Assembly: GCA_036389935.1 (NCBI GenBank)
Contig: DASWCU010000064.1
Location: forward strand, 3,628 to 67,627
Direction: 5' to 3'
Length of the DNA: 64,000 bases
Source: Candidatus Limnocylindria bacterium
GTDB lineage: Bacteria; Chloroflexota; Limnocylindria; P2-11E
Under the pieces are notes generated by a model, which saw only the letters and a program-made list of their open reading frames with translations, did not search any database and was not told where the DNA came from. This document shows positions 47,934 through 48,095 of this stretch, piece after piece. The stretch's first letter is position 1. Every line of letters begins with the position of its first letter. Position numbers and translations under genes: made by a program.

Positions 47934-48008
47934 GGGGCTGTGGCGCAGTGGTAGCGCATCACACTGGCAGTGTGGGGGTCAGGGGTTCGAATCCCCTCAG
48001 CTCCACCA
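47934..48008 (+). tRNA. tRNA-Ala: tRNA-Ala (anticodon GGC), CCA encoded
   Basis: GGGGCTG acceptor stem with G3:U70, D-loop AGTGGTA, anticodon loop CTGGCAG, T-loop TTCGAAT, discriminator A, CCA. Confidence 0.9.
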
Positions 48009-48032
48009 GCCGCGCAGCGGTGGGCGTCTCAA

Positions 48033-48053
48033 GTCGGGGTGGTACCGCGGAAG
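48033..48053 (+). promoter_or_regulatory. T-box antiterminator-like sequence (GGGGTGGTACCGCGG) with no upstream Stem I/specifier
   Basis: Exact match to the T-box core GGGUGGNACCGCGG; the UGGU bulge is complementary to an ACCA tRNA 3' end; possible A1 helix GGGG(48036-39)/CCCC(48066-69) competes with the terminator 5' arm. Confidence 0.5.
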
Positions 48054-48095
48054 TGGCCCTTTCGTCCCCAACACGGACGGTGGGCCATTTTTTAT
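48054..48095 (+). terminator. intrinsic terminator after tRNA-Ala / T-box-like element
   Basis: TGGCCC-ttt-CGTCC-ccaacac-GGACG-gt-GGGCCA two-tier hairpin followed by TTTTTTAT. Confidence 0.6.

Follow-up and report, generated by a model that had tools for sequence, protein, structure and literature searches.

How can the decision-making end of a T-box riboswitch stand directly behind a gene for a transfer RNA (tRNA), where there appears to be no space for the domain that should recognize a ligand? The question is raised by a 64,000-nucleotide (nt) stretch of DNA, here called the window, from a Candidatus Limnocylindria bacterium of the Chloroflexota (assembly GCA_036389935.1, contig DASWCU010000064.1). 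In this stretch, a tRNA-Ala(GGC) gene with an encoded CCA end (47934..48008) is followed by a T-box core, a terminator and leuS, the gene for leucyl-tRNA synthetase (LeuRS), and all features of the leader lie on the forward strand. An earlier reading of the letters alone (the sequence-only reading) had recognized these elements, but concluded that Stem I was missing and that the tRNA gene left no room for a specifier loop. Our analysis indicates a different arrangement, in which leuS is preceded by a complete predicted leucine T-box, the sensing parts lie upstream of the tRNA, and the tRNA-Ala gene is nested inside the riboswitch. We estimate a probability of roughly 85% that 47748-48093 forms one leader, which would act both as a working, transcription-attenuating leucine T-box for leuS and as a precursor of tRNA-Ala(GGC).

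The covariance model (CM) for T-boxes in the Rfam database (RF00230) aligned end to end, from model position 1 to 219, over 47748-48072 with a score of 67 bits and an E-value of 2.7e-14, and the feature covered by this alignment is a complete T-box leader with a 104-nt insertion in the loop of Stem III as its sole large departure from the model. Stem I (47754..47846), supported by the CM alignment and by the minimum free energy (MFE) fold, comprises the GA (kink-turn, K-turn) motif, the AGUA sequence, the AG bulge, the distal loop GGUGCGA and the specifier loop; the model placed the motifs GAA...AGUA, AAGCGAG, GGUGCGA and GAA-CUC-G within this interval. The sequence-only reading was therefore mistaken on this point, as Stem I and the specifier loop are both located upstream of the tRNA. 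The specifier codon in the CM alignment is CUC for leucine (47834..47836, in the context GAA-CUC-G), in agreement with the downstream gene leuS. Stem I is followed by the region that holds Stem II with Stem IIA/B (47847..47898), where the Stem II hairpin, also present in the MFE fold, and the F-box CCCGUUA (47892-47898) align to RF00230, the Stem IIA/B pseudoknot being a prediction. When the 349-nt leader was folded without constraints, the MFE structure contained Stem I, Stem II, a closure of Stem III around the multibranched tRNA region, and the terminator.

Stem III is the helix that closes around the tRNA. Its 5' strand GAGACG (47915..47920) pairs with 48025-48030 in both the CM alignment and the MFE fold, and the 3' strand CGUCUC together with the conserved AA that follows it (48025..48032) is supported by the CM alignment and by covariation. 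The 5' strand is preceded by the purine string GAGCG (47910..47914), which was assigned by motif comparison across loci and is of the RRRxG type known to flank Stem III (PMC7583486, PMC7778990). The resulting order GAGCG-[GAGACG...CGUCUC]-AA is that of a T-box, and only the loop, which houses the tRNA, is abnormal. In the non-nested T-boxes of relatives, Stem III is an ordinary short hairpin, and the site of the insertion is therefore pinpointed.

Behind this helix, the T-box core GGGGTGGTACCGCGG at 48036-48050 agrees with the Rfam T-box consensus aGGGUGGUACCGCG, and GGGGUGGUACCGCGG at this position carries the UGGU bulge (48040-43). The T-box sequence and antiterminator together occupy 48036..48069 in the CM alignment, with helix A1 (GGGG/CCCC, in which CCCC at 48066-69 is paired with GGGG at 48036-39), the bulge UGGUACC (48040-46) and helix A2 (GCGGA/UUCGU). 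Folding predicts an intrinsic terminator at 48054..48093, a two-tier hairpin in which 48054-59 and 48063-67 pair with 48075-79 and 48082-87, followed by a T6 tract at 48088-93; its folding energy is -30.2 kcal/mol with a z-score of -3.07. A scan of the window for consensus terminators found none, and the hairpin contains an internal loop. Since the 5' arm of the terminator shares nucleotides with the 3' strands of A1 and A2 (48061-69), the two structures are mutually exclusive. Much of this had been read correctly before: the tRNA gene with its CCA, the exact match of the core with its bulge, the two-tier terminator with T6, the alternative pairing of CCCC with GGGG, and the position of leuS about 110 nt downstream (GTG at 48203, 109 nt beyond the T tract) were all recovered here. 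The proposal that the block behind the tRNA is a genuine T-box antiterminator and terminator likewise held, and it is predicted to control readthrough into leuS. The gap between the CCA and the core exists as described, its length being 27 nt and not 25 nt.

The distribution of the arrangement was determined in two surveys. A LeuS-based scan with one genome per species gave 80 loci, mostly from Chloroflexota, and the closest LeuS relatives belonged to Limnocylindria with 79-81% identity. A tRNA-Ala(GGC) gene occurred on the same strand just upstream of leuS in more than 30 of the 80 loci. The nested arrangement was present in eight species genomes, in full at loci L001, L002, L003, L010, L060 and L066 and cut at the 5' end at L004 and L043; with 96.5 bits, the nested T-box of L010 passes the Rfam gathering score. 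Other relatives displayed the tRNA immediately upstream of a normal complete leucine T-box (L009, L015, L018, L042, L061) or a T-box without the tRNA (L006 and Herpetosiphon aurantiacus, L065), and many of the loci had the tRNA without a T-box. The contigs of L003 (DASQIF010000121.1) and L066 (JBLNDL010000015.1) are labeled 'Candidatus Acidiferrales' and 'Sphingomonadaceae'. Their leuS loci are nearly identical in organization and tRNA sequence to those of the Chloroflexota loci L001 and L060, respectively, and both contigs are probably mis-binned.

In the second survey, metagenome contigs were searched with a pattern that disregards the identity of the tRNA (GGTTCRANTCC, 25-55 nt, then GGTGGNACCRCG), which returned at least 120 loci. 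As this pattern needs a specific T-arm and the given spacing, elements with a long 3' linker (as in L001, L002 and L066) or with unusual T-arms are under-sampled. Among the at least 120 matches, 99 of those listed contained tRNA-Ala(GGC), with a UGGU-type T-box core 10-42 nt later, and full-length T-box matches spanning the tRNA were obtained at 18 of 20 sampled tRNA-Ala loci, seven of them above the gathering score and the highest at 124.8 bits (L174). No T-box was detected at 15 tested metagenome matches, seven with another tRNA and eight without a tRNA call; the nesting of other tRNAs in T-boxes was rejected, since the seven matches with another tRNA carry none. Nested T-boxes also occur in two cultured organisms, Syntrophomonas curvata (L201, 111.4 bits, tRNA at 2321-2396) and Thermosyntropha lipolytica DSM 11003 (L202, 130.9 bits, tRNA at 868-943). 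LeuS of a group with moderate GC content (L166) was 90% identical to Syntrophomonas proteins, placing it in the Syntrophomonadaceae, and LeuS of a very AT-rich group (L086) was 92% identical to proteins of Atribacterota. Judged by model matches and conserved motifs, the nested element is present in Chloroflexota, Bacillota and Atribacterota, at about 110 independent loci. The RF00230 match in the window is hence accompanied by significant matches at homologous loci, with the T-box core conserved. Chance juxtaposition or a recent insertion is ruled out by this conservation across phyla.

At most of the metagenome loci, leuS starts 55-400 nt past the T-box. In some lineages, a gene for an ilvE-like aminotransferase or a GNAT protein lies between the two, and an ilvE-like gene at this position fits a leucine regulon. 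The intervening frames, with identities judged by eye, were a GNAT-like open reading frame (ORF) of about 186 amino acids (aa), sometimes accompanied by an ORF of about 265-270 aa, or an ilvE-like branched-chain aminotransferase of about 310 aa; loci with such an additional gene before leuS are L094, L113, L135, L156, L158, L165, L180, L191 and L194, and also L083, L130, L146, L182, L186 and L188. Of 87 loci examined, 16 (e.g., L081, L083, L107, L112, L151, L160) have a second gene, tRNA-Ala(CGC), directly 5' of Stem I; it precedes the nested tRNA-Ala(GGC) by 183-358 nt. In these 16 loci, the 5' domain of the T-box (Stem I, Stem II and the 5' strand of Stem III) lies between two tRNA genes. 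At L061, both tRNAs (CGC and GGC) precede a normal T-box. The arrangement with two tRNAs may record the origin of the nested form.

The elements collected in this way allowed the proposed helices to be evaluated by covariation. In a MAFFT alignment of 95 distinct elements, the tRNA cloverleaf and antiterminator helices were paired in 98.7% of cases compared to 84.4% in shuffles, and their covariation score was 0.418 compared to 0.161, a value reached by 0 of 500 shuffles; controls with slid positions did not exceed 0.108. The cloverleaf stems were 99-100% paired with many compensatory changes (95 homologues), and A1 and A2 were paired in 93% and 98% of 95 sequences, compensatory changes included. 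The UGGU bulge was invariant among the nested loci, and a hairpin followed by a T-rich tract was present in 85 of 91 homologues. Of the 96 distinct loci, 89 carry a CUC specifier motif ahead of the nested tRNA, compared to 0.8% in shuffles; this count was obtained with a relaxed specifier pattern, as stricter patterns under-counted. The specifier loop of L002 (at about 2620) and L096 reads GAA-U-CUC-G with one additional U before CUC, and a codon counted strictly after GAA would be UCU (serine); the additional U is probably an insertion tolerated by the loop or an assembly error.

Over the whole region, MAFFT placed the 5' strand of Stem III wrongly, and its alignment was used for the tRNA and the antiterminator only. 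For Stem III, the registers were anchored on sequence alone, i.e., on RRRxG after the F-box and on AA before the T-box. The 5' strand of the bracketing helix was always preceded by GAGCG, GAGUG, AAGUG or AAGCG, and the AA anchor was present in 98 of 99 loci. Counted from the base of the helix, the flanks of the same locus paired over 4.86 consecutive base pairs (bp) on average, compared to 1.37 for the 3' strands of unrelated loci, and pairing of at least 5 bp occurred in 67% of own-flank comparisons and in 2.3% of unrelated ones. The helix occurred in 52 distinct variants, with compensatory changes at all seven pairs. Its covariation score was 0.594, compared to 0.216 in shuffles (0 of 500 reaching 0.594) and at most 0.193 in slid controls (63 gapless pseudo-sequences). 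An alignment-free comparison of the duplex energy of the tRNA flanks (own -13.3, other partners -10.4 kcal/mol) was uninformative, being confounded by relatedness and GC-rich flanks, and a search for 6-mer complements missed Stem III helices of 5 bp.

The insert itself has the properties of a regular tRNA gene. It was called as tRNA-Ala(GGC) by ARAGORN, scored 67.6 bits with the Rfam tRNA model, and displays the cloverleaf, the T-loop, the G3:U70 pair, the anticodon GGC, the discriminator A73 and the encoded CCA. The alanine identity pair G3:U70 was retained in 95 of 95 sequences. Position -1 was U, the base preferred by bacterial ribonuclease (RNase) P, in 75 of 99 nested tRNAs. In one third of them (33 of 99), the discriminator is not followed by an encoded CCA (ACCG, ACCC, ACCU, ACUA or similar), and endonucleolytic 3' cleavage and addition of CCA would therefore be required there. 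tRNA-Ala(GGC) is an ordinary free-standing gene beside leuS in many relatives lacking the T-box; the nested copy therefore represents the normal tRNA-Ala(GGC) gene of the lineage, and these features suggest that it is matured and used.

The surroundings of the tRNA within the loop are far less constant, and linker lengths and hairpins behind the tRNA vary widely (3-93 nt). The linker that joins the 3' end of the tRNA to the Stem III 3' strand measures about 11-27 nt in the window and at most loci; an additional 75-100 nt with apparent hairpins are located at this position in L001 (2817-2916), L002 (2776-2873) and L066 (2704-2778), some of which are close relatives of the window. In the window, CCACC at the 3' end of the tRNA (48003-07) is complementary to GGUGG in the trailer (48019-23), and the trailer can also fold into a small hairpin, GCCGC-GCA-GCGGU (48009-21). 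Relatives whose trailers are shorter do not retain these pairings, which possibly reflect chance in GC-rich sequence.

Promoter-like sites occur upstream of Stem I and not between Stem I and the tRNA, which argues for a single transcription unit. In the window, a gap of 22 nt between the start codon of a divergent DUF402 gene and the T-box contains TATACT (47735..47740), a putative -10 box of the leader promoter suggested by its conservation in this lineage: it is strictly kept at equal distance from Stem I in the window and at L001-L003, L085, L089, L093, L109, L115, L136, L143, L155 and L187. Other lineages carry TTGnnn-N16-18-TAnnnT just upstream of Stem I (31 of 56 loci). Across the loci, no conserved promoter-like site was found between Stem I and the tRNA, L130, which lacks a recognizable Stem I, being excepted. 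An internal promoter for the nested tRNA was considered and rejected on this ground.

Based on these findings and on analogy to characterized T-boxes, the switch would respond to tRNA-Leu as follows. The anticodon of tRNA-Leu(GAG) would pair with the CUC specifier offered by Stem I, and bacterial tRNA-Leu carries A73 as discriminator. With uncharged tRNA-Leu, pairing of the ACCA 3' end with the UGGU bulge would stabilize the antiterminator (A1/A2, 48036-69) over the terminator (48054-93) and RNA polymerase would read into leuS, while charged tRNA-Leu would lead to termination at 48093. Closure of GAGACG with CGUCUC around the tRNA would restore the RRRxG-Stem III-AA geometry needed by the discriminator domain, so that the tRNA could be carried as an independently folding appendage of the Stem III apical loop. 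As every transcript able to act as a T-box has to include the tRNA, and as the tRNA is located upstream of the terminator, it would be transcribed from the leuS promoter with the switch on or off, and terminated leaders, which are otherwise waste, would become tRNA precursors. RNase P at the 5' end and RNase Z or exonucleases at the 3' end would excise the tRNA, and this would necessarily leave Stem I, Stem II and the Stem III 5' strand on one fragment and the T-box, the terminator and the mRNA on another. The T tract follows the 3' end of the tRNA by only 85 nt. The regulatory decision, expected 1-2 s after synthesis of the tRNA, probably precedes processing.

Several observations weigh against this interpretation. 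The T-box of the window scores 67 bits and is thus below the Rfam gathering score of 93, which we attribute to the 104-nt insertion in the Stem III loop; at the gathering threshold, Rfam reports only the tRNA-Ala and a transfer-messenger RNA (tmRNA) in the window, and the T-box surfaces in E-value mode. Close relatives carry the tRNA just upstream of a normal T-box, demonstrating that co-expression is possible without nesting. The Stem III helix closes 0-7 nt from the acceptor stem and could hinder RNase P. A scan of the window for consensus sigma-70 promoters returned no site, there is no clear -35 element at the leader, and the candidate leader promoter at 47735-40 has the conserved TATACT as its one piece of evidence. 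Finally, the window contains no tRNA-Leu(GAG) gene from which the discriminator base could be read.

A tentative extension of the proposed dual-purpose leader, which would add to it rather than exclude it, is that the switch requires the nested tRNA as a working part and does not just carry it as a passenger. In one version, cutting out of the tRNA by RNase P and RNase Z would detach Stem I and Stem II with the bound tRNA-Leu and thereby reset the riboswitch, and the readthrough mRNA of leuS would acquire another 5' end, with the terminator hairpin as its cap and with altered stability; such a 'self-dismantling' riboswitch would couple its output to the tRNA-processing capacity of the cell. 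Alternatively, the additional 100 nt or so could impose a delay during transcription in which tRNA-Leu has the time needed for docking. A coupling to tRNA processing would explain why the nested position, beyond mere linkage, has been kept in three phyla and about 110 loci, although a position upstream of the T-box is viable in relatives. The obligatory endonucleolytic 3' cleavage inside the leader in the third of cases without an encoded CCA is in line with this idea, as are the 16 of 87 loci with tRNA-Ala(CGC) 5' of Stem I, where the 5' domain of the T-box would be excised as a discrete piece. Cleavage of a leader that sets the fate of the mRNA would also have precedents. One is processing of the Bacillus subtilis thrS leader, as reportedly described by Condon et al. 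in 1996. Another is cleavage of the Staphylococcus aureus met T-box leader by RNase III, where the leader is likewise separated from the mRNA after the decision and stability is affected (PMC7913692). In contrast to these two leaders, the cuts predicted here would be made by enzymes of tRNA maturation, at positions that precede the T-box sequence rather than within or beside the terminator. However, the conservation of the position can also be explained by the difficulty of moving the gene out of the loop without breaking either element, and the wide variation of the linkers and hairpins behind the tRNA argues against a precise timer. We therefore regard an obligatory role of the tRNA as possible but clearly not the favored view.

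That the insert might be a tRNA-like structural domain, such as a scaffold or a protein-binding handle that is never matured, appears very unlikely. Stem III is indeed positioned very near the acceptor stem in some loci, with a 5' linker of 0-3 nt. However, all identity and universal features of tRNA-Ala are kept, including G3:U70, GGC, the T-loop, A73 and U at position -1 at the frequencies given above, and orthologous free-standing tRNA-Ala(GGC) genes exist beside leuS in many T-box-less relatives.

Hardly any weight can be given to the suggestion of the sequence-only reading that the block is a degenerate T-box without a sensing domain, reused as a mere terminator of the tRNA-Ala gene. A strong terminator does follow directly 3' of the tRNA, and two distant metagenome relatives resemble such a state. 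At L130 (tRNA at 643-714) and L182 (tRNA at 5931-6003, reverse strand), tRNA-Ala(GGC) is followed by a T-box core and terminator and then by an ilvE-like gene and leuS, and neither a match to the T-box model at E<=1 nor a recognizable Stem I or specifier was found. L130 additionally has a TTGACG-N17-TATAAT site 24 nt upstream of the tRNA. Both look like derived forms without Stem I and represent a rare minority, so that the picture of a leader lacking Stem I applies to them but not to the window, which aligns to the full T-box model including Stem I and a CUC matching leuS. The T-box features are conserved and covarying in about 90% of the loci, with CUC, the purine string and the antiterminator helices maintained over three phyla, and a plain terminator would not be expected to keep the antiterminator helices and the purine string.

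Scarcely tenable is the second suggestion, a switch in cis in which readthrough into leuS would be governed by the unprocessed tRNA-Ala, its ACCA being paired with the UGGU that lies 32 nt downstream. The window tRNA does encode ACCA (48005-08), the bulge of the window is UGGU, and tRNA-Ala and tRNA-Leu share the discriminator A, but ACCA is missing in 33 of 99 nested tRNAs while UGGU is invariant, an ACCA inside a transcript lacks the free 3' end needed to report aminoacylation, and a complete Stem I with a leucine specifier is available for a ligand in trans.

The leader with its nested tRNA gene can be compared with several known systems. With canonical transcriptional T-boxes (RF00230; the tyrS and glyQS leaders of B. 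subtilis and the leuS leaders of Firmicutes), it shares all defining parts in normal order, namely a specifier-bearing Stem I, Stem II, the F-box, Stem III with its purine string, the UGGN bulge, the antiterminator/terminator pair and the U tract. Unlike the canonical loop of Stem III, which consists of a few nt, the loop here contains a 75-nt tRNA gene for another amino acid, alanine, together with linkers, and, unlike in canonical T-boxes, the leader of the window extends to about 350 nt and falls below the Rfam gathering score. Cotranscription of tRNAs with an mRNA is known from the thrU-tyrU-glyT-thrT-tufB operon of Escherichia coli, and in mitochondria tRNAs punctuate polycistronic transcripts (PMC11144196). 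These systems resemble the present one in that one promoter serves both the tRNA and a protein gene and that RNase P and RNase Z set the tRNA free, but there the tRNA is positioned between functional units, whereas here it lies within a folded regulatory RNA whose helix closes around it.

Insertions in T-boxes have been described before, such as 'stem Sa' of staphylococcal glyS and insertions in Stem III and helix A2 of translational T-boxes (PMC9177973, PMC4574755, PMC7583486), and insertions termed 'curious' have been noted in each of the T-box domains (PMC7583486). Like the nested tRNA, these are structured additions at the periphery of the discriminator that are conserved within lineages. 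However, they are simple hairpins with a proposed role in contacting the ligand tRNA or in drug binding, while the insert described here is a gene product that needs excision and occurs in three phyla. A complete tRNA gene nested in a functionally related element of translation, with processing proposed to cut the host transcript, has been predicted bioinformatically for tRNA-Sec within the selB ORF of Alphaproteobacteria (PMC8124441). In that case, the host is an ORF and the tRNA is cognate to the encoded protein, whereas here the host is a riboswitch and tRNA-Ala is cognate neither to the ligand of the switch, tRNA-Leu, nor to LeuRS.

Downstream of the leader, leuS with its ribosome-binding site GAGGAGG (48190-96) occupies 48190..50635 as judged by ORF and Pfam analysis, starts with GTG at 48203 and encodes 810 aa with the editing, catalytic and anticodon-binding domains of LeuRS. 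The divergent DUF402 gene on the reverse strand starts at 47725, and FtsW/RodA is encoded farther upstream (Pfam). The tmRNA gene of the window (3553-3907, forward strand, Rfam 139.6 bits) encodes the tag peptide GTNTYALAA, is ordinary and is unrelated to the T-box leader. At L103, a c-di-GMP-I (cyclic di-GMP class I) riboswitch (188-274, reverse strand, 84.4 bits) is located about 200 nt upstream of, and divergent from, the nested leader.

Full-text literature searches, in which subscription journals were mostly uncovered so that an earlier mention is possible, returned no account of a tRNA gene located within a T-box or within another kind of riboswitch. A riboswitch that hosts the gene of another functional RNA inside one of its helices would thus represent a new architecture, for which we found no earlier report. 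The arrangement suggests that an independently folding domain of about 100 nt is tolerated at the apex of Stem III, within the discriminator domain of the T-box. It would also place two RNAs with different fates on one transcript, as production of the tRNA must destroy the leader, and could lend itself, as a natural system, to experiments on the sequence in which co-transcriptional folding, ligand sensing and processing take place. As an engineering application, T-box scaffolds might be considered as vehicles for the co-expression of tRNAs. The cultured carriers Syntrophomonas curvata and Thermosyntropha lipolytica make the element experimentally accessible. For the phyla concerned, the insertion drops many T-boxes below the Rfam threshold, so that the tRNA is called and the regulation of leuS is missed, and T-boxes are probably undercounted in Chloroflexota and Atribacterota.

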